The translations under genes were made by a program, and so were the position numbers. DNA of 64,000 nucleotides, from positions 1,826,008-1,890,007 of the forward strand of contig OX639992.1 of assembly GCA_951828515.1 (NCBI GenBank), written 5' to 3'. The notes under the pieces were generated by a model. The model was not told the origin of the DNA, searched no databases, and saw nothing but the letters and a program-made list of their open reading frames with translations. Positions 4,516 through 59,177 of this stretch are shown here, one piece after another. Numbering within the stretch: position 1 is the stretch's first letter; every line of letters begins with the position of its first letter. Origin of the DNA: an uncultured Poribacteria bacterium. GTDB taxonomy: Bacteria; Poribacteria; WGA-4E; WGA-3G.

Positions 4516-4905
4516 CCCTCGCTTTTTGTTGCAGCTTGCAGGTTTCCAAAACTTGCCGTTAAATAGTGTGTGTGGTGCGTGTAAGTTCAATTTCATAATG
4601 CAAACGCCATAGTAGGTGCTATTCCGAAAGCAAAGCAGGCGTTTCAATTCACGCTTGAACCTTTATAATTATACCCTAAAATCCGTTTCCTGTCAACGGA
4701 TTTGTGTTTTGTATAGAGCAATCAGCAATCAGCAGTCAGCAATCAGCAGTTGCCATTTCCTTTTGCTGTGTTTCAGAGTATTCAGAGTAAAACATGGAAA
4801 GTGATAGGTCTTAGAAAGGGTTGTAAACCTTCACTACAACTGGGTTCTGGGCGGTTTTCATAGCAGGTGTTTTGTAGATTTACTCTGAAAGTCTACAGTT
4901 AGCAG

Positions 4906-5060
4906 TCGGGAATCGGAGTTCCCTCCTACAAGAGTCAGTGTTTAGATAGGGCACGGGTTCTGGGAAAAGTCACGACCGGGAGGTCACTCCTACAGAAGAG
5001 GGAGTCAGGATTCAGAGGTTGCTCCTACAGGAAGGCTTTGGGAATTGACAGGATCGGATT
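4906..5060. repeat. cluster of small-hairpin repeats of the GGGAATCGGAGTTCCCTCCTACAGAAGAG family
   Basis: Units GGGAATCGGAGTTCCC and GGAGGTCACTCC, each followed by TCCTACAGAAGAG. Related copies lie at 9340..9412 and 52791..52830. Confidence 0.5.
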
Positions 5061-5541: not shown

Positions 5542-7464
5542 CTATGGATAGAACTGATACATTGTGGTGTTCAGAAGGATGTTTAGGAGGCTCCATGTGC
5601 TTCCCATGAGGTAATCACCGAGAACTAATCCTAAGAAGAAGGGGATGGCGCGCCGATAACTCTGGATACCACCGTGTCGAAGGATAAGCCATTTCAATGT
5701 CAAGGCAATTAGCAACGGAATCCAGAGGTCGGACATTTCTTGGTTGCTCGCCATCACATAACCGAGTGGATGCAGGGGTAGCCAAAAGAATTTGACACGA
5801 AGATATGTAAGCACCATCATGACAGAAAAGCCAATACCCATAAATATTACGCCGAGCCAGTCTGTGCTGAGCGGATACGTAATCCAGTTCGTCAACCGTC
5901 CGAAGTATTCTCTCCCGTAACCGAGTGCCCACGGTCCAAAGTAGCCGGAATCCGCACCGAATTGGTAGTAGAGATGCAGTTGGACCCAAAAGGCGACAAG
6001 CCCTCCGAAAATAGTGGCAATAACAACTGTCAAGAGCATCCGGCGTTGGTTAATATTAGCGAGTTCAGCGATTTTAAACGCCTCCAATTGATGCGGCATC
6101 TGCTGCGGACGGTAATCTCGGTTGAAAAAGCAGACGGAGAGTGCCGTTAAGTTCTGAGCCCCAAGACGATGCGTCCCCAAAATAGTGTTTAAGATGTATC
6201 GCGGTGCCTGCCAGTGGTAGGCGTGGACAAAAATGCCGGACTCCGCTCGGATACGTGTTGTCACCAGCGGCGTTATGAGGAACAGAACAGCGAAAGTAAG
6301 CGCAAGCCAGACCGACATGCCCGCCTTGTAGAGGAGAAACGCAAACAACAGAATACCGAGTCCAAAGCCCCATACCGCCACCCGATACGGCATCGGTTCA
6401 TCGTGCTGTTCGGCGGGTGGCTCTCGTCCACGAGAGGGCAGCACACTTTTCAGAACGGCTTTGAAATGCCGTTTGCCCGTCCAACCAAAGAAAAAACAGA
6501 GCCCCACGAATGCTCCGATCGTCTGTTCGTTAAGATAGGGGAAACGCGGGATACTACTCCACCCAACGGCTTTTGCTAAAGCGACTTCGTTCCGATAGAG
6601 AAAATAGAAGAGGGTTGTCGAAAAGAGGACATCCAACGGCATGAGGAACATAATGCCGATAGCAAACGGATAAAAAGCCGTGATGATGGTGCCGTAGAGA
6701 CTCAAGGGTGGCTCCTGAAACGAGAAAAAACGGCGCGTCACCGGAATATGTGGAATCACGGGATAGAGATGGCTCAATCCATTGAAAAGACTGATACCCG
6801 CAGCAATCGCAAAGCCGATCCACATCCGTTTATTTCTGAAGAACGCAGAAGTAGGATTCGTCATTGCCAGTGGGAGTTGAATAATCGGGAAGGTAAGGCG
6901 TTCACGCTGTGCCCACTGCCGACGGAGGATCGTATTGAGGCAGAGAAAGATGAACGCTATCACTGTAAAGAGCAACAACCACGCCGCTACTACTGGTGCC
7001 CAAACCTGTAGATGCATCGGACGGTATAGACTTGACTCTCCTTGGTAGTAGCCCCGAAGTGCGTCTCTATCTGAAACCGTGAGCCATTGCGGGAGGTGGT
7101 GCCAAAATAGGGTGCGCCATTCGTTTTCTTCCGTTGCGAACCAGAAACTGTGTCCAAGTACAGAAAGAATCGCTTGCAGGACATCGCATCCAGCGAGCGT
7201 TGTGGCGAAACTGAGTGTCACGTAGAGAAGTAGTAGTTCACCTTGTCCAAGGGCAAAATCACTGTTTAGGAGACGGATGACCGCGTTAATTAGCATCACT
7301 GCGGTGAGGATGAAAATCACGTTGGAGAGTGGGACGACCCATGTCGGAAAGGTATAGCGCACGACTTCCATCTGGATAAGGAAGTAGCAGTTAATCGGTG
7401 CGGTAATCGCGAAGATACACAAGACGCGCCAGGTCAAGGCACGTTGCTGGGGGAGAGAAGTCAA
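5542..7464 (-). CDS. polytopic integral membrane protein, unknown function
   Basis: 640 aa with at least 14 predicted hydrophobic helices and no recognisable catalytic motif. Confidence 0.5.
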   Translation of the reverse strand: MTSLPQQRALTWRVLCIFAITAPINCYFLIQMEVVRYTFPTWVVPLSNVIFILTAVMLINAVIRLLNSDFALGQGELLLLYVTLSFATTLAGCDVLQAILSVLGHSFWFATEENEWRTLFWHHLPQWLTVSDRDALRGYYQGESSLYRPMHLQVWAPVVAAWLLLFTVIAFIFLCLNTILRRQWAQRERLTFPIIQLPLAMTNPTSAFFRNKRMWIGFAIAAGISLFNGLSHLYPVIPHIPVTRRFFSFQEPPLSLYGTIITAFYPFAIGIMFLMPLDVLFSTTLFYFLYRNEVALAKAVGWSSIPRFPYLNEQTIGAFVGLCFFFGWTGKRHFKAVLKSVLPSRGREPPAEQHDEPMPYRVAVWGFGLGILLFAFLLYKAGMSVWLALTFAVLFLITPLVTTRIRAESGIFVHAYHWQAPRYILNTILGTHRLGAQNLTALSVCFFNRDYRPQQMPHQLEAFKIAELANINQRRMLLTVVIATIFGGLVAFWVQLHLYYQFGADSGYFGPWALGYGREYFGRLTNWITYPLSTDWLGVIFMGIGFSVMMVLTYLRVKFFWLPLHPLGYVMASNQEMSDLWIPLLIALTLKWLILRHGGIQSYRRAIPFFLGLVLGDYLMGSTWSLLNILLNTTMYQFYP

Positions 7465-7954: not shown

Positions 7955-7980
7955 GGCGGGGTTGCAAACCCCGCCAGCAG
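7955..7980. repeat. REP-like hairpin variant GGCGGGGTTGCAAACCCCGCCAGCAG
   Basis: Same family; located ~45 nt downstream of the enolase-family gene stop. Confidence 0.55.
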
Positions 7981-9309: not shown

Positions 9310-9336
9310 GGCGAGGTCAGGAAACCTCGCCAGCGG
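9310..9336. repeat. REP-like hairpin GGCGAGGTCAGGAAACCTCGCCAGCGG
   Basis: Member of a family of at least 10 copies sharing GGCGAGGTT-loop-AACCTCGCC-AGCGG. Confidence 0.65.
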
Positions 9337-9479
9337 CGGTGGATAAGCATCGTGATCGGGAGATCGTTCCTACACAAACAAGGGTCGCGATTCGGAGATC
9401 GCTCCTACAGAAGAGAAAAATAAAAAGGGCGAGGGATTCATAAAACCTTCTCCCCCGCCCTATTGTATACCAATACATA

Positions 9480-10307: not shown

Positions 10308-10563
10308 GAATGTCTCCTCCGATTTCATAAAGAGTTGTGTTGCCGTTTATTCACAAGCAACAGCATGATGACAAGGCTATAGGCATCGCTTAGATACCCG
10401 TATCATCAAAGATGCCTTGTCTAAAACTAAAGTGGTGTTGGGTGAGGTACGGAGACCTCACCCGACAAAGATGAGTAGTGCAATGCAGAAAGACTGAGGT
10501 ATGGTAACCTCGCCCTGCAACGCCAGTTGATTCTATGCTATTTGTCTATATTAAGGCAGGAGA

Positions 10564-11588: not shown

Positions 11589-11615
11589 GGCGAGGTTAGG
11601 GAATCTCGCCAGGGG
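11589..11615. repeat. REP-like hairpin GGCGAGGTTAGGGAATCTCGCCAGGGG
   Basis: Same family. Confidence 0.6.
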
Positions 11616-15268: not shown

Positions 15269-15414
15269 GGAGTTACGCAAAGCGCAATAATGCACGTCGC
15301 ATGAATCAACGGTATTCAGGTTCTCCATATGGCATGAGTCGGGGTGAGTACACCGCAGAATTGCGCTACTACGAACCAAAGCCCGCACAAAAACAGGTAA
15401 ACTATGTAAGTCCT
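15269..15414. repeat. MITE-family member with degenerate left TIR (AGGAGTTACGCAA) and intact right half shared with 29660/53575 copies
   Basis: The right half GAATTGCGCTACTACGAACCAAAGCCCGCAC...TATGTAAGTCCT matches the 29660 element. Confidence 0.5.
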
Positions 15415-15857
15415 ACCTAAGTTGCTACTTAACGTGAGATTGACATAAGCGTATCGTTGGAGCCCTGCCTCATTCTCGCAGGCAGCGGTGGATTGTCGGG
15501 TTTCGCTGTGTTTATTTTTCTGAATGTGTCATGAAAAAGGAGACGTTTGTGGGTAATTTGAAGGATTCTGGGTGTGTCATCGCTCTACCCGACCTACGGG
15601 TCTCTTTCAATTTTTATTATTAAACTCACGTTACTTACAAGATTTTCGCCGTGAAGTCCGCGTTTTTGTATCGTCTCCTGTGAACTTTCGGACGCACAAG
15701 AAACACGGACTAACAGTCTATGCTACAAAGGGGCTACTTGCGCTATTTGGGAAAACTTAATAACACAAAGGGGTGATGAGGCAGGCTTTCAAGTGCGTTT
15801 GCCTACCGAAATTGAAGGATGGAGATTGGAAAGTATGGAATAGGAATGGGAAATTTA

Positions 15858-20251: not shown

Positions 20252-20269
20252 AAATCTATCACCCTTGGT

Positions 20270-20296
20270 GGCGAGGTTAGGAAACCTCGCCAGCGG
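20270..20296. repeat. REP-like hairpin GGCGAGGTTAGGAAACCTCGCCAGCGG
   Basis: Same family; sits between the cytochrome-fusion gene and the nucleotidyltransferase gene. Confidence 0.65.
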
Positions 20297-29273: not shown

Positions 29274-29294
29274 GGCGAGGTTAGAAACCTCGCC
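29274..29294. repeat. REP-like hairpin GGCGAGGTTAGAAACCTCGCC
   Basis: Same family. Confidence 0.6.
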
Positions 29295-29645: not shown

Positions 29646-29659
29646 CTCTCTACCTCCTC

Positions 29660-29779
29660 AGGACTTACGCAAAATTGGCTTTCATGCCAAAATTGAAGGG
29701 ATATTCCCGAAGAAAGCGCAATGAATTGCGCTACTACGAACCAAAGACCGCATGAAAACGGGTCAACTGCGTAAGTCCT
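29660..29779. mobile_element. MITE-like element (~120 bp) with 12-bp terminal inverted repeats AGGACTTACGCA / TGCGTAAGTCCT
   Basis: It is bounded by perfect TIRs and is intergenic. A near-identical copy (~95% identity) lies at 53575..53694. Confidence 0.7.
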
Positions 29780-29947
29780 ACCTCCTTTTTGAAGGAGTAA
29801 CTTATAGGCGTATGTGGACGGAAACGGAATAGCCGCTATCCCTCACAAATTAGGGATTTATACTACAGTAACGCGGATAGGGTACAGGAAGGTTGCAGAA
29901 AGTGCAATTCTTTGGAAATGTTGTGTGGTTACAATAAATTTGTAATG

Positions 29948-29974
29948 TGGCGAGGTTAGGAAACCTCGCCAGCG
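29948..29974. repeat. REP-like hairpin GGCGAGGTTAGGAAACCTCGCCAGCGG
   Basis: Same family; identical to the 20270 copy. Confidence 0.65.
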
Positions 29975-33281: not shown

Positions 33282-34028
33282 CTACAACGATAGTTCGGGA
33301 TCAGATTTCCTGTGATTAAATTGCACGGGATCTTCACCGTGAACGACGATAAGTTTGTGTTCGGGCGCATCCCAATCGAACACTTTGACAATCGGCAGGA
33401 TGACCCGAACCGCTAAACCGATGCGTCGTTTGTCAGAACGATTTGCCTCCGAGTGATGCAAGGTGCGCTCATTAAAAAGGACAAATTCGCCGGGTTGCAT
33501 TTCAAGGTTGACAATAGTGGTGGTATCAATGAACCCGAGATCGCCCATTTGATTGAACGCCATGTCCGAGGTCGCTTTCACGTGTGGGACCACTTTTCGG
33601 TGTGAGCCGGGAACGATCTGGAGACAACTATTTTCTAATGTTGCGGAATCGACAGCAATCCACGCAGAAATAATAATCGGAGGTTCAAGGGGCCAGTAAT
33701 TAAAGTCTTGATGCCACGGAATCTCTTTCGCGCCCGGTTCTTTGATGAAAAAATTCGTCCGCCAGAGCAGAAGATCGGGTCCGTAGAGAGATGCCATCCG
33801 TTTGACGATCGCTGGATGTGTGGCGAGATTATGAATCAATGTAGAGTCAAGATGGCGGTTGTGCGCCAATTGGTTGTGATCCGGCGGTGCAGTCTCAAGG
33901 ACTGTCTCTATTTCCGAATGCATGTTGAACATATCTTCAGAACTACAAAGTTTGTAAGGACCGAGGTAACCCTGCCGCCAAAACTGTTCCCTTTCTTCGG
34001 CACTCAATGCATGATTTCCGTTCTGCAT
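33282..34028 (-). CDS. phytanoyl-CoA dioxygenase (PhyH) family Fe(II)/2OG oxygenase
   Basis: WHQDFNYWP (HxD) ... later His. 248 aa. Preceded by the conserved leader GCAAGGAAAAATTAAAAA-ATG. Confidence 0.75.
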   Translation of the reverse strand: MQNGNHALSAEEREQFWRQGYLGPYKLCSSEDMFNMHSEIETVLETAPPDHNQLAHNRHLDSTLIHNLATHPAIVKRMASLYGPDLLLWRTNFFIKEPGAKEIPWHQDFNYWPLEPPIIISAWIAVDSATLENSCLQIVPGSHRKVVPHVKATSDMAFNQMGDLGFIDTTTIVNLEMQPGEFVLFNERTLHHSEANRSDKRRIGLAVRVILPIVKVFDWDAPEHKLIVVHGEDPVQFNHRKSDPELSL

Positions 34029-34202
34029 TTTTTAATTTTTCCTTGCGGTTAGATAACGTACGTTTCAAATTTGATGTCCGTTCCATAAATCCGCCTGCGC
34101 CGTTGTTGCAGGCTATAGGTTCCGTACAAATTCTGAGAATCATTATGGTCTTGGTCGGAACGTCGTGGAAAGCAGACAGAGGACATACATTTATAGTAAA
34201 GC

Positions 34203-34384
34203 CCATAATTACTTGGACATTACGGATAGGCGAGGATACAATCCTCGCCAGCGATGGTGTGGGCATAATTACTTGGACATTACGGATAGGCGAGGATACA
34301 ATCCTCGCCAGCGATGGTGTGGGCTTCCTTCACTGAACATAGGCGAGGATACAACCCTCGCCAGCGATGGTGTGGGCTTCTTTC
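34203..34384. repeat. tandem repeat, ~60 bp x3, each unit carrying a REP-like hairpin GGCGAGGATACAATCCTCGCCAGCGATGGTGTGGG
   Basis: The first two units are identical: CATAATTACTTGGACATTACGGATAGGCGAGGATACAATCCTCGCCAGCGATGGTGTGGG. The third has a different left half. Confidence 0.7.
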
Positions 34385-37240: not shown

Positions 37241-37375
37241 AGGGCTTACGCATAAAGCAGATATTAGAGGATGCAAGAGTAAATATAGTGGATTCTGTAA
37301 TTAATTTTACACCAAACTCGGTGCGGTTAGAAACCGCACCTACCGGCGGTGTGCAGATATTAGAGGATGAAAGAA
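37241..37375. repeat. degenerate MITE-like copy (AGGGCTTACGCATAAAGCAG ... CGGTGCGGTTAGAAACCGCACCTACCGGCGG)
   Basis: It shares its internal module with 37515..37604. The TIRs are mutated. Confidence 0.4.
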
Positions 37376-52302: not shown

Positions 52303-52958
52303 ACTCACGTTGATTTAGGGATTTGTATATGTACCGCGATCCATCAGCGAAAGGCATGGATGAGGTAAATAATCGACTCAGTGAGGACATAATAACACTA
52401 CGCACAATGGACAGACAACGGAAACAGACAATCGCGTAGCAACAGCAAAACAGAGATGATGGTTGCCGCGATAAAATCATCGGGTACGCAATTATTGGTA
52501 TTATTGGTATTATTTTCGCACTGATAGGTGCCTTGTCGGAAGGGTGTTAAAAAAATAATCCCTGTCCTATCGTCGCAAAACTACAGCCTGCTATCCTGAT
52601 TCCAGCAACAAATGCTGACGAACAAAAAATCCGAGAAACCCGTGGCATCCGCGTCAATCCGCGATTCAGACGGATACCTCTCGCCGTAAAGCAAAATAAT
52701 TACACACCCAGAACTCCACAAACTAACACGTTTATGCTACAAAGAGGCCCTGTGAATTCTAACATTCACTAAAAAAATTGCCTCGTAGAGCAACAGGTCG
52801 GGAATCGGAGTTCCCTCCTACAGACGAACTAATCGCTCTGGGCATTTTCAACGGCTTGTGGAAGGATTATCAAGGGGTACCTGAAGGGTTGATTTAGAAA
52901 AGTATTTTGAAAATGTGATTCCAGTAGAAACGAGTAGCGGAAAAAGATGTTGCAACTT

Positions 52959-53366: not shown

Positions 53367-53574
53367 ATAGAAGGGACAAGCAGTGAAATGGAACTTGTGT
53401 TGGTTCTCCTTCTACCACTTCTCGTAAAGAAATCCATTGACCATCGGAAGTTATAGCCACTGGACGACTCCAATGGTCTTCGTGAGGCATTGGTGCGTTA
53501 TTCGCCATGAGTGTCTCCTTAAGGAATCAGAACCCAAACTATTTTTTTTAAACTGGTTGATATTTCTAAGTATC

Positions 53575-53694
53575 AGGACTTACGCAAAATTGGCTTTCAT
53601 GCCAAAATTGAGGGGATATTCCCGAAGAGAGCGCAATGAATTGCGCTACTACGAACCAAAGACCGCACGAAAACGGGTCAACTGCGTAAGTCCT
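53575..53694. mobile_element. MITE-like element, second near-identical copy (TIR AGGACTTACGCA)
   Basis: It shares ~95% identity over 120 bp with 29660..29779 and has the same TIRs. Confidence 0.7.
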
Positions 53695-53867
53695 AAAGTA
53701 TTATACGATAAAACGAAATAAAAGTCGAAAATAGGACTGGGTGCCACTATGTGAAAAATTTGACTTTTCGTAGTGTATATGTTATACTTTAAAATGAAAT
53801 TTTTCAGGCAGCTACACTTAAGATAGGGTTGTAGAAGCGGTATTGTGCGTTGTTATCTGGATGAAAA

Positions 53868-56828: not shown

Positions 56829-59177
56829 ATGCAACGCTTGCGAGTCCTTTTGGTGAAGCTTGCGAACCAAAACTTGCGCTACAAATGTCAGCAATTGATG
56901 TCGGACCTGCGCGTTGTCAAAACCTCTGGATTCAGGTCCTACGTTGGACTTCTCACCTTTTCCGCCGCTTCCCTCGCCATTGCCTTAGGAATCACCCTCC
57001 AAAAATACATTGTTTTTGAATACCACTCAAATTCGGGTATCGTCGGCTGGCTCAGTGTTCATGCGTATCCGAAACAGCAGGAATACTTCTTCTATCTGCT
57101 GGCACTGCTTGGTATCCCCACAACAATATATCTGTACTGGCTCGCGTGGTGTGTCTATTCGCGCTGGTGCGCCCAACGAACCGCCCAACCGATACAGCGT
57201 GTGCTGAAAGCAAACGCCTTGGCATCCATTCCGTTGTGGCTTTGCTGGCTACAGGTCTACTCTATCGGTCAGGGTATACTAACAGGCTTATTCGTACCGA
57301 TGAGTCTATCCATTTTGCTAAAATTGGTACTGTTGTATAAGCGGTACTTCCCTACACTGTGGACTCCAGATATTTCTGATGACAGAGACACCCACAACGC
57401 AGCCTGCAACAACGGCGCAGGCGGATTAATAGAAAAGCAGCCTAATCCTGAACCTCACTTTATAACTCCGCAAGGTACAATTAAAAAACGTGGTGGACTT
57501 GAATACCTTATCCTTCCCATTTTCATCTATCTCCTTATCTACTCTGGAAACATCCACGGCAAAATAGATTTATTTCATGAGGGTGAACGCCTCGCACCTC
57601 TCAATGAAATGCTGCACGGCGCGGTGCCGTTTCGGGACATCTATATCCAGCATGGACTCTTCCAAAACGCTTATCTGGCATGGTTGGGTAGCCAATTCTT
57701 TGAACCAACCCTATTCGGTATGCGTTCAATGGAGGACATATTGGACCCACTGGGTTATATCGCTCTCTACGTGCTCGGTTTGCAAGTATTCCGAGGTAGA
57801 TTTTTGACCGCTTTTATCTGTGTGATTATTGCCTCTGGGACAGAGTTTTGGGTAACTGCAAGACACAGCCTGGGCTTAATTAGTTTCGCCTTCGTAGCGA
57901 ATTCCCTTACGCACTTCCAAAAGACTCGCCCGAACCAGGTCCCTACATTTGTATGGAAATTGCTCCTCGCTGGGATCTCCACGAGTTTGGCGTTTTGGTA
58001 TAGCACTGAAATCGGGCTCTACACGCTGGGTGCCATCGGATTATTCCTGGTTATATATGTGTTCCAAGGCGGCTTTGGAACAGAGAATGGAAGAGGGCGA
58101 GGTTGGAAACCTCGCCAGCGGGAGGGAAGGGGAAGAGAATACCTGATCCCCTTAATCAGTTATGGCTGCGGGGTGCTGTTAGGTTTTCTCTCGGTAGGTA
58201 TCTATTTTTTATCGCACGGTGCCTTGGATGATGTAATCTGGAATTCCTATATCCAGTGTCGCTATCAACTCGCAACGTGGGGACTTGCTTTTCCATCTCT
58301 ATCGGAAACACTTGCCCTCTTGTCAACAGAGGGTTGGAACGCTTTCGTTTTCAGCGAAGGATTTCGATGGTACCTGCCCGTTTGCATCTTTTTGATCGTC
58401 GCGGCGTATCTGACATATCGGTGCTTATGTGGAACTGCATCAGAACCCAACGCGATGAAACTACTGCTGTTATTGCTCGGTGGCATTGCATTCTTCCGAA
58501 CTGCATTGGGACGTTCAGATGGTGGACATCTGATTTACGGCGCAACCTTTTTATGGCTGCTCTGTCTATTCCCATTAGAGAGAGGCATTTCCAAAATGTT
58601 CCGTGCGTGTCTATCGTTTTTAAGAGGGAACGGACGTTGGCAGTCCGCATTGAAGGCAGTGTGGGTGCTAATTCCGATGGCAATATTCTGTTGGTATGTA
58701 GGGCAAGCGCATCAGCCGTTGGCAGGTTTCCGAGAGAAATGGCAAAGATTGCGTCAGAACCCGTTCAAACAACGCGTTGTAACGCAGGAATTAGTGCGCG
58801 CAGGAAAGGTGGACATCCCAGACGATCAAGTTCAACAGGTTCAAAAGGTGGTCGCTTATATCCAAGAAAATACAGCACAGAACGAAAAGATTTTCGATTT
58901 TACGAGCCAGGGTGCCTACTACTTCTTCGCAGACCGACTGAGCGTTACCCGATTCCATCAAGTCTCGTACGCATCAACACCTGAGATGCAGCAAGAAGTT
59001 ATCTCAGCCCTTGAAAAGGACAAAACGCGTTTAGTGATCTTTAAAACCGGAGGTTGGTTCGATGCTGTTGACGATATTCCTGTCGAGGAGCGGCACCCCC
59101 TGATCGCGGAATACCTGCAGGCGAACTATGAACTCGCGGTGAACATTAACGAAACGGAGATTTTGCTTCGGAGATAA
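56829..59177 (+). CDS. large polytopic membrane protein, unknown function (contains an in-frame REP-element insertion)
   Basis: 782 aa with many TM helices and a GAGG RBS. Residues ENGRGRGWKPRQREGRGRE are encoded by a REP-like hairpin at 58096..58121. Confidence 0.5.
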   Translation: MQRLRVLLVKLANQNLRYKCQQLMSDLRVVKTSGFRSYVGLLTFSAASLAIALGITLQKYIVFEYHSNSGIVGWLSVHAYPKQQEYFFYLLALLGIPTTIYLYWLAWCVYSRWCAQRTAQPIQRVLKANALASIPLWLCWLQVYSIGQGILTGLFVPMSLSILLKLVLLYKRYFPTLWTPDISDDRDTHNAACNNGAGGLIEKQPNPEPHFITPQGTIKKRGGLEYLILPIFIYLLIYSGNIHGKIDLFHEGERLAPLNEMLHGAVPFRDIYIQHGLFQNAYLAWLGSQFFEPTLFGMRSMEDILDPLGYIALYVLGLQVFRGRFLTAFICVIIASGTEFWVTARHSLGLISFAFVANSLTHFQKTRPNQVPTFVWKLLLAGISTSLAFWYSTEIGLYTLGAIGLFLVIYVFQGGFGTENGRGRGWKPRQREGRGREYLIPLISYGCGVLLGFLSVGIYFLSHGALDDVIWNSYIQCRYQLATWGLAFPSLSETLALLSTEGWNAFVFSEGFRWYLPVCIFLIVAAYLTYRCLCGTASEPNAMKLLLLLLGGIAFFRTALGRSDGGHLIYGATFLWLLCLFPLERGISKMFRACLSFLRGNGRWQSALKAVWVLIPMAIFCWYVGQAHQPLAGFREKWQRLRQNPFKQRVVTQELVRAGKVDIPDDQVQQVQKVVAYIQENTAQNEKIFDFTSQGAYYFFADRLSVTRFHQVSYASTPEMQQEVISALEKDKTRLVIFKTGGWFDAVDDIPVEERHPLIAEYLQANYELAVNINETEILLRR
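58096..58121. repeat. REP-like hairpin GGCGAGGTTGGAAACCTCGCCAGCGG located inside a CDS
   Basis: Same family; inserted in-frame within the 56829..59177 membrane protein gene. Confidence 0.6.

Follow-up and report, generated by a model that had tools for sequence, protein, structure and literature searches.

In a 64,000-nt stretch of DNA from an uncultured Poribacteria bacterium (GenBank assembly GCA_951828515.1, contig OX639992.1, positions 1,826,008 to 1,890,007; hereafter the window, numbered from its first letter), a 42-nt unit resembling a repetitive extragenic palindromic (REP) element is embedded in frame in a membrane-protein gene, in the DNA predicted to code for a short turn between two transmembrane helices (loop 2). 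It is highly probable that a single REP-like insertion occurred in this inter-helix turn long ago and that the loop sequence which it supplied was then tolerated, decayed and recombined. The relevant features of the host gene are listed below (aa, amino acids; AF2, AlphaFold2).

56829..59177 (+): host coding sequence (CDS); its product of 782 aa is a polytopic membrane protein whose C-terminal domain is soluble; ThiS-like and JAB/Mov34-like genes lie upstream
58011..58067 (+): hydrophobic segment upstream of the loop, aa 395-413 (Kyte-Doolittle; AF2 low-confidence helix 393-412)
58089..58095 (+): copy 1 of the 7-nt direct repeat GGAAGAG; copy 2 at 58131-58137, inside the unit tail
58096..58116 (+): REP hairpin, arms 58096-58104 (GGCGAGGTT) and 58108-58116 (AACCTCGCC), loop GGA
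58096..58137 (+): 42-nt REP unit, the 21-nt hairpin plus a 21-nt G/A-rich tail, AGCGGGAGGGAAGGGGAAGAG
58146..58202 (+): hydrophobic segment downstream of the loop, aa 440-458 (Kyte-Doolittle; AF2 helix 428-462)

The window reads GGCGAGGTT-GGA-AACCTCGCC-AGCGG at 58096-58121 (+) and, in wider context, ...GGAACAGAGAATGGAAGAG-GGCGAGGTT-GGA-AACCTCGCC-AGCGGGAGGGAAGGGGAAGAG-AATACC...; the 9-bp stem is perfect and the loop has 3 nt. The hairpin lies within the sole long open reading frame (ORF) of the region, which runs for 782 aa with no internal stop, and is translated as G423-R-G-W-K-P-R-Q430 (GRGWKPRQ) within ...TENGRGRGWKPRQREGRGREY... (aa 418-438); the peptide stretch spanning the element is ...TENGRGRGWKPR... 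Its folding energy is -16.2 kcal/mol (z = -3.8), a stability reached by 0 of 200 shuffles, and a search of the window for the hairpin 21-mer with a tolerance of 3 mismatches yields 3 sites, vs 0 in 100 shuffles; in fold and in family matches the hairpin exceeds chance. Scans for terminators and promoters gave counts like those of shuffles, and the hairpin has no terminator-like T-run behind it; Rfam had no match in 56.5-59.5 kb. The original prediction of a REP hairpin in frame in this CDS between two hydrophobic segments is thus upheld by the sequence, the ORF and the Kyte-Doolittle profile, as is the view that the repeat is tolerated in a loop, here a predicted inter-helix loop of an intact ORF. 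Another perfect hairpin stands directly upstream of the REP at 58060-58082 (TGTTCCAA-GGCGGCT-TTGGAACA, coding VFQGGFGT); it has one stem mismatch in clade B (TTACAA) and was not seen elsewhere.

The hairpin family and its distribution

Repeat finding and a hairpin scan located 11 further copies in the window, all with the hairpin and a 3' tail.

29274..29294 (+): intergenic member, GTAG-tagged on the opposite strand
7955-7975: further copy
9310-9331: further copy
10441-10462: further copy
11589-11610: further copy
20269-20292: further copy
29948-29971: further copy
34229-34249: further copy
34289-34309: further copy
34342-34362: further copy
37320-37340: further copy

The family consists of a hairpin with a 9-bp stem followed by a 12-17-nt tail (AGCGGCGGTGGA, AGCGATGGTGTGGG, TACCGGCGGTGTG, TACCCGGGGAGGGGAGA); the tails of the further copies are AGCGGCGGTGGA-like or TACC-like, and that of the intragenic copy is AGCGGGAGGGAAGGGGA. 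Stems covary among copies (GGCGAGGTT/AACCTCGCC, GGCGGGGTT/AACCCCGCC, GGTGCGGTT/AACCGCACC, GGCGAGGAT/ATCCTCGCC). The family is REP-like by structure and distribution, and these covarying copies confirm the REP identity claimed for the element. Copies 7955, 29274 and 37320 are GTAG-tagged (GTAG-GGCG/GGTG); the intragenic and most other copies read GCTG-GCGAGG on the opposite strand. The copies at 34229-34362 form a direct tandem of three REPs, spaced by 60 and 53 nt, between PhyH and alcohol-dehydrogenase genes.

All 11 other copies are effectively intergenic (those at 9310 and 20269 fall inside stop-to-stop ORFs but upstream of the Pfam-domain starts), which leaves one intragenic copy of 12 in 64 kb. 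An exact-pattern scan of Joint Genome Institute (JGI) metagenome contigs returned 32 loci, 31 of them extragenic (the matches L099 and L101 lie upstream of true gene starts). The sole clear intragenic match is in loop 1 (aa ~176-226) of the same host gene, and the idea that REPs commonly colonize Poribacteria CDSs was rejected.

It is extremely unlikely that the palindrome is unrelated to REPs, having arisen on the spot, by chance or through a small duplication, in a loop that evolves fast, or that it is an assembly artefact. The loop is hypervariable and an unrelated perfect hairpin stands just upstream (58060-58082), but hairpin and tail match a dispersed family where chance would give 0 matches, the edges of the indel are those of the family unit, the element recurs in another frame, as (G/S)EVxNLAS, both in many orthologues, at loop 1, and in a radical-SAM gene, and independent assemblies agree. 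An assembly chimera is an unlikely source of the insert because this stands at the identical codon in the independent assemblies L037, L001, L039, L010, L008, L009 and L011.

Loop 2 among orthologues and the age of the insertion

Protein and codon alignments were made of the window sequence and 80 orthologous loci from species-representative genomes (81 sequences); the host ORF is colinear with all 80. Loop 2 takes the following forms.

Short loop, LQSG-IxxRKRPLPL, with 23 residues from anchor to anchor, in sequences of as little as 56% identity: 50/81
Hairpin, 'W' form: window, L037, L001, L039, L010; 5/81
Hairpin, 'Y/S' form (GGT-TAC/TCC-AAA): L008, L009, L011 (the Y group); 3/81
Segment minus 12 apical hairpin bases: 16/81
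Larger deletion: L007; 1/81
Separate clade with a different expansion: L019, L021, L023, L024, L029, L040; 6/81

In the comparison with orthologues lacking the insert, proposed with the original prediction as a check, 50 of the 81 keep the 23-residue loop, and this short loop is the ancestral state. Relative to such 'empty' alleles the 42-nt unit is an indel coding for 14 residues (R422-G435 or G423-R436). Its length is a multiple of three, so an insertion would have kept the frame and lengthened the turn by 14 residues. In the loop-2 frame the hairpin is read GGT-TNN-NAA, and the intragenic alleles carry TGG, TAC or TCC and no stop; intergenic variants with the loop AGA would give GGT-TAG, a stop in this frame. 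The Arg/Gly richness of the peptide is probably a by-product of GC-rich arms and a purine-rich tail, which supply CGA, CGC, CGG, AGG, GGN and GAG codons. Arms and tail together yield the residues R, G, K, P, Q and E, a net positive peptide placed in a loop that already had RKR in its ancestral form.

The insert stands at the identical codon in seven other species-representative genomes and in 18 further metagenome proteins. Because position and length are identical among the hairpin carriers, we infer a single insertion, which would date to a sub-clade's common ancestor, for this segment of the gene at least. The unit then appears to have persisted as tolerated, largely unconstrained and presumably neutral loop sequence and to have followed several courses. 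The stem is intact in the window allele and the Y group, while the 5' arm is mutated in L037 and L001, which already have one stem mismatch, and in L039 and L010, which have lost most of it; at the protein level the 5' arm is also mutated in P0013, P0018, P0023, P0024, P0033 and P0040. The 3' arm and AGC are invariant in all 8 hairpin alleles. Sixteen species lack the 12 apical bases; their form reads GGAAGCAGGCGA|AGCCAGCGGGAAAAAAAT and keeps the outer stem bases and the family CCAGCGG, and hairpin and deleted alleles are homologous at the nucleotide level (GGAAG(A/C)(G/A)GGCGA[GGTTGGAAACCT](C/A)GCCAGCGGGA...). The two metagenome alleles P0019 and P0027 (loci L081 and L082) read ...GGTGGAAGAG|AATAC... 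and are without exactly the 42 nt of 58096-58137. Their nesting beside the hairpin alleles P0018 and P0025 in the protein tree makes a secondary, precise loss likelier than the survival of an empty site. The indel boundaries in both alleles fall in the 7-nt repeat GGAAGAG, between whose copies the whole unit would have been lost; the repeat itself may be a target-site duplication or microhomology in purine-rich sequence.

The original prediction held the insertion to be recent. Identities between the window and the other hairpin carriers, given below for the 42-nt unit, the gene and third codon positions, are at odds with this.

Window vs L037/L001: unit 95-98%, gene 97-98%, third positions 95-96%
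Window vs L039/L010: unit 86%, gene 87%, third positions 73%
Window vs Y group: unit 79-81%, gene 81-83%, third positions 65-66%

Unit identity tracks gene identity. The insertion is old, insert and gene showing about equal divergence across lineages with ~82% gene identity. That it is strain- or species-specific and recent is very unlikely: the window stem is perfect and the element still fits the intergenic consensus, but the insert is common to other species at the same codon, including lineages with 81-87% nucleotide identity in the gene and 64-73% at third codon positions, its divergence parallels that of the gene, and decayed derivatives are widespread (16 orthologues).

The history of the loop is not that of the whole gene. 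In a neighbour-joining tree of the whole gene, (A,(B,C)) with 95-97% bootstrap, the two clades with expanded loops, A and B, do not group together, but a sliding comparison along the gene is mosaic: trees on aa 229-409 and 443-480 join A and B with 100% bootstrap, whereas flank trees join B and C with 100%. Among outgroup-polarized derived sites, aa 351-460 hold 7 shared by A and B vs 0 by B and C, and aa 461-782 hold 0 vs 12 (Fisher p ~2e-5, our own calculation). Mosaic trees and polarized sites together argue that the segment around loop 2 (aa ~351-460) was exchanged between diverged Poribacteria lineages by homologous recombination, which would have reshuffled the loop alleles. The polyphyletic origin of the expanded loop suggested by the whole-gene tree was rejected, as it proved a recombination mosaic.

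Several observations weigh against an old single insertion followed by neutral decay. Haplotypes with the hairpin (tail EKRGxE) and with the 12-nt deletion (tail EKNRRE) are interspersed on well-supported branches, so that a single insertion needs repeated recombination or parallel deletions; recombination of old alleles seems the best explanation. For REP-type families one expects, by default, that an IS200/IS605-like tyrosine transposase mobilizes them, and the gene of the cognate REP-associated tyrosine transposase (RAYT, a Y1 transposase) is typically flanked by REPs. RAYT-type mobilization may have placed the unit here, but the intragenic copy has GCTG, not GTAG, beside the stem, and the 10 ORFs adjoining REP copies in the window hold no Y1_Tnp domain. 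Topology and the structural position of the loop come solely from hydropathy and a poor AF2 model. Finally, window and Y group (L008, L009, L011) agree in all 18 stem bases despite ~65% third-position and 65-70% tail identity. Such conservation exceeds the expectation of simple neutrality and hints at homogenization by other copies, selection for the hairpin or re-insertion.

The conserved stem bears on two other explanations. In the first, the intragenic hairpin is kept for a function, as an mRNA or DNA structure or a recombination site, for instance as a translational pause during membrane insertion, an RNase barrier or a site for a REP-binding protein or a RAYT. Perfect, identical stems set against ~35% third-position and 30-35% tail divergence would fit such a role, as would the unchanged 3' arm and AGC, the passage of segment aa ~351-460 between lineages and the presence of REP material in both loops of many species. 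We nevertheless regard a kept function as unlikely, as most carriers have lost the hairpin (16 with the apical deletion, L007 with a larger one, two alleles entirely), the 5' arm is mutated in four of the species-representative carriers and several metagenome proteins, 50 orthologues function without any insert, and intact alleles in the sample are few. In the second, to which we attach only a small probability, both loop stretches are long-lived landing pads, where hairpins are held at the consensus by gene conversion or selection and REP segments move between lineages by homologous recombination; intragenic REPs would then be recombination or regulatory sites, or drivers of loop-length evolution, and not neutral filler.

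Loop 2 of L019, L024 and L029, from the clade with the separate expansion, holds a different, GTAG-tagged REP (reverse complement GTAGGGGCGAGGTCACCTCGCCCC, at about 7200-7300 in locus coordinates), read GEVTSPLRQ and present in two copies in L024. This looks like an independent colonization of the same turn.

The host protein, loop 1 and other in-frame copies

Profile searches of the host protein against Pfam, NCBIfam and the PDB gave no match and no family. It has at least 12 hydrophobic segments (Kyte-Doolittle) and 371 close homologues, of which those named are Candidatus Poribacteria; the wider family numbers 1664 cluster representatives at E<=0.001. The AF2 model, built from a 120-sequence alignment, has a mean confidence score (pLDDT) of 46.6, too poor for placing the loop. 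By the positive-inside rule, the RKR of the ancestral loop and a crude count of transmembrane segments from the C-terminus, loop 2 is probably cytoplasmic. Pfam finds in some distant family representatives only appended C-terminal Ricin-B (lectin) or F5/8-C carbohydrate-binding domains, and one distant homologue has a PMT_2 match below threshold. The family has hints of a GT-C-like glycosyltransferase with an outward-facing C-terminus. Many distant homologues (P0121-P0270) align only from ~aa 205 on, which sets loop 1 at a module junction.

In most clade A, B and C orthologues loop 1 contains the same REP in another frame, at about 6490-6570 in locus coordinates. Full hairpins (GGCGAGGTTnnnAACCTCGCCAGCGAAAA), read (G/S)EVxNLASE, are found in L001, L003, L004, L007, L011, L025, L027, L031, L032 and L057, and half copies made of the 3' arm and tail (AACCTCGCCAGCGAAAAGG), read NLASEK, in many others, including L006, L039, L010, L009, L014 and L012; arm and tail are also duplicated in tandem, up to 4 times in P0045. 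The peptide thus depends on the frame: loop 2 gives RGxKPRQ, loop 1 and other sites (G/S)EVxNLAS. The window itself has a second in-frame segment derived from a repeat in loop 1.

57401..57488 (+): 88-nt repeat-derived segment, ~aa 191-220 (...NAACNNGAGGLIEKQPNPEPHFITPQGTIKK)

This segment is a copy of 34028-34114 (minus strand; inverted-repeat pairs I1 and I2, alignment A2), which forms the 5' leader of a PhyH gene. The element comprises a hairpin, GCCTGCAACAACGGCGCAGGC, whose 23-nt core is identical in both window copies, and a leader-like AACNCCGCAAGGNANAATTAAAAAA motif; it is carried in loop 1 by the window, L037, L002, L056 and L067, and its hairpin occurs in loop 1 of L002 and L037 and elsewhere in L001, L004 and L039. 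Other ORFs, at about 63, 2110 and 2316 (minus strand), likewise have the leader-like motif ahead of them.

The only other gene seen with an in-frame family copy encodes a radical-SAM/SPASM protein with a C-terminal PCP-reductase-like domain, a few kb downstream of the host gene in L003 and L080, two distantly related species. Here the REP is in frame in the interdomain linker.

L003, 14002-14022 (minus strand): REP read QRSEVSNLASV
L080, 12674-12694 (minus strand): REP read QNSGVSNPANS

Repeat-derived loop sequence is recurrent within the host gene, in loops 1 and 2 and from several repeat families. The description of the insertion as a rare example therefore holds for the family, with one of 12 window copies and one of 32 metagenome matches intragenic, but not for the host gene, where most orthologues have REPs in loop 1, another clade has a different REP in loop 2, and loop 1 of the window carries a second repeat. 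Intragenic REPs and Rickettsia palindromic elements (RPEs) are already documented (PMC3733652, PMC10969869).

Comparison with known repeats

Di Nocera et al. (2013, PMC3733652) list intragenic copies of the GTAG-/CGTC-tagged REP superfamilies, defined by a GTAG (or CGTC) abutting one stem end, from several phyla. Like the Poribacteria family, these are stem-loops of 20-40 bp, overwhelmingly extragenic, with occasional copies inside genes that are read through and that homologues in related species lack. GTAG stands beside the stem in window copies 7955, 29274 and 37320 and in the loop-2 REP of L019, L024 and L029; the intragenic window copy differs in having GCTG at this place. The candidate phylum Poribacteria is outside that survey, the host gene here codes for a membrane protein without a known family, whereas the paper highlights replication and repair genes, and repeats of several families have struck a single gene, in two of its loops. 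A search of the literature for Poribacteria and palindromic returned only CRISPR mentions and nothing on Poribacteria REPs.

Among palindromic elements that lie in frame, RPEs are the classic example (Ogata et al. 2000, as summarized in PMC10969869). In that summary they resemble the present unit as palindromic selfish repeats, in frame in a CDS, translated and tolerated where the fold allows, with the host ORF free of stops and frameshifts and with orthologues that have or lack the element. An RPE-type site is expected in a surface or loop stretch that suits the fold; the loop-2 insert lies between two hydrophobic segments in a region of variable length, and at a pLDDT of 46.6 the AF2 model is too poor to place it. 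As summarized there, RPEs differ in size and number, being ~100-150 bp long, coding a conserved peptide of ~30-50 aa and occupying dozens of genes per genome, against 42 nt and 14 aa here and rare intragenic copies (the one metagenome match, in the same host gene). Intragenic ERIC and other transposable elements of the miniature inverted-repeat type (MITEs) with open frames (Delihas 2007, as cited in PMC10969869) are likewise small mobile repeats adding a new peptide; by that citation, the present element is much shorter and has no MITE-type terminal inverted repeats.

REPIN/RAYT systems (Bertels & Rainey 2011, PMC3116915; Nunvar; Ton-Hoang) share with the Poribacteria family REP-type hairpins in many copies per genome with covarying stems. 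The differences are that the intragenic copy is a singlet (58096-58116) with no second, inverted copy within the CDS loop, that the sole window cluster (34229-34362) is a direct tandem rather than an inverted doublet, that no RAYT gene stands beside REP copies in the window, and that a 7-nt direct repeat flanks the unit, whereas RAYT/IS200-type insertion normally creates none.

In-frame REPs and RPEs having been described already, no new mechanism is revealed here. The host gene is a phylogenetically resolved case of a REP becoming protein sequence, in an uncultured sponge-symbiont phylum in which REP families are thus present. The whole series is seen within this gene: a short ancestral loop, an intact insert, a decaying stem, an apical deletion, a precise loss and recombination between lineages. 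It illustrates how palindromic repeats can lengthen the loops of membrane proteins, and it is a warning to annotators and to multiple-sequence-alignment and structure pipelines that such loop inserts are repeat-derived.

Two further repeats were noted in the window. Small clusters at 4904-5034, 9348-9414 and 52796-52827 belong to a second hairpin family, whose GTAG tag is on the opposite strand (GGTCGCGATTCGGAGATCGCTCCTACAG). Another dispersed repeat of ~120 nt, containing AGGACTTACGCAAAAT and GAATTGCGCTACTACGAACCAAAG, is found at 29658-29780, 53573-53695 and 15358-15418, two of the copies being 98% identical.

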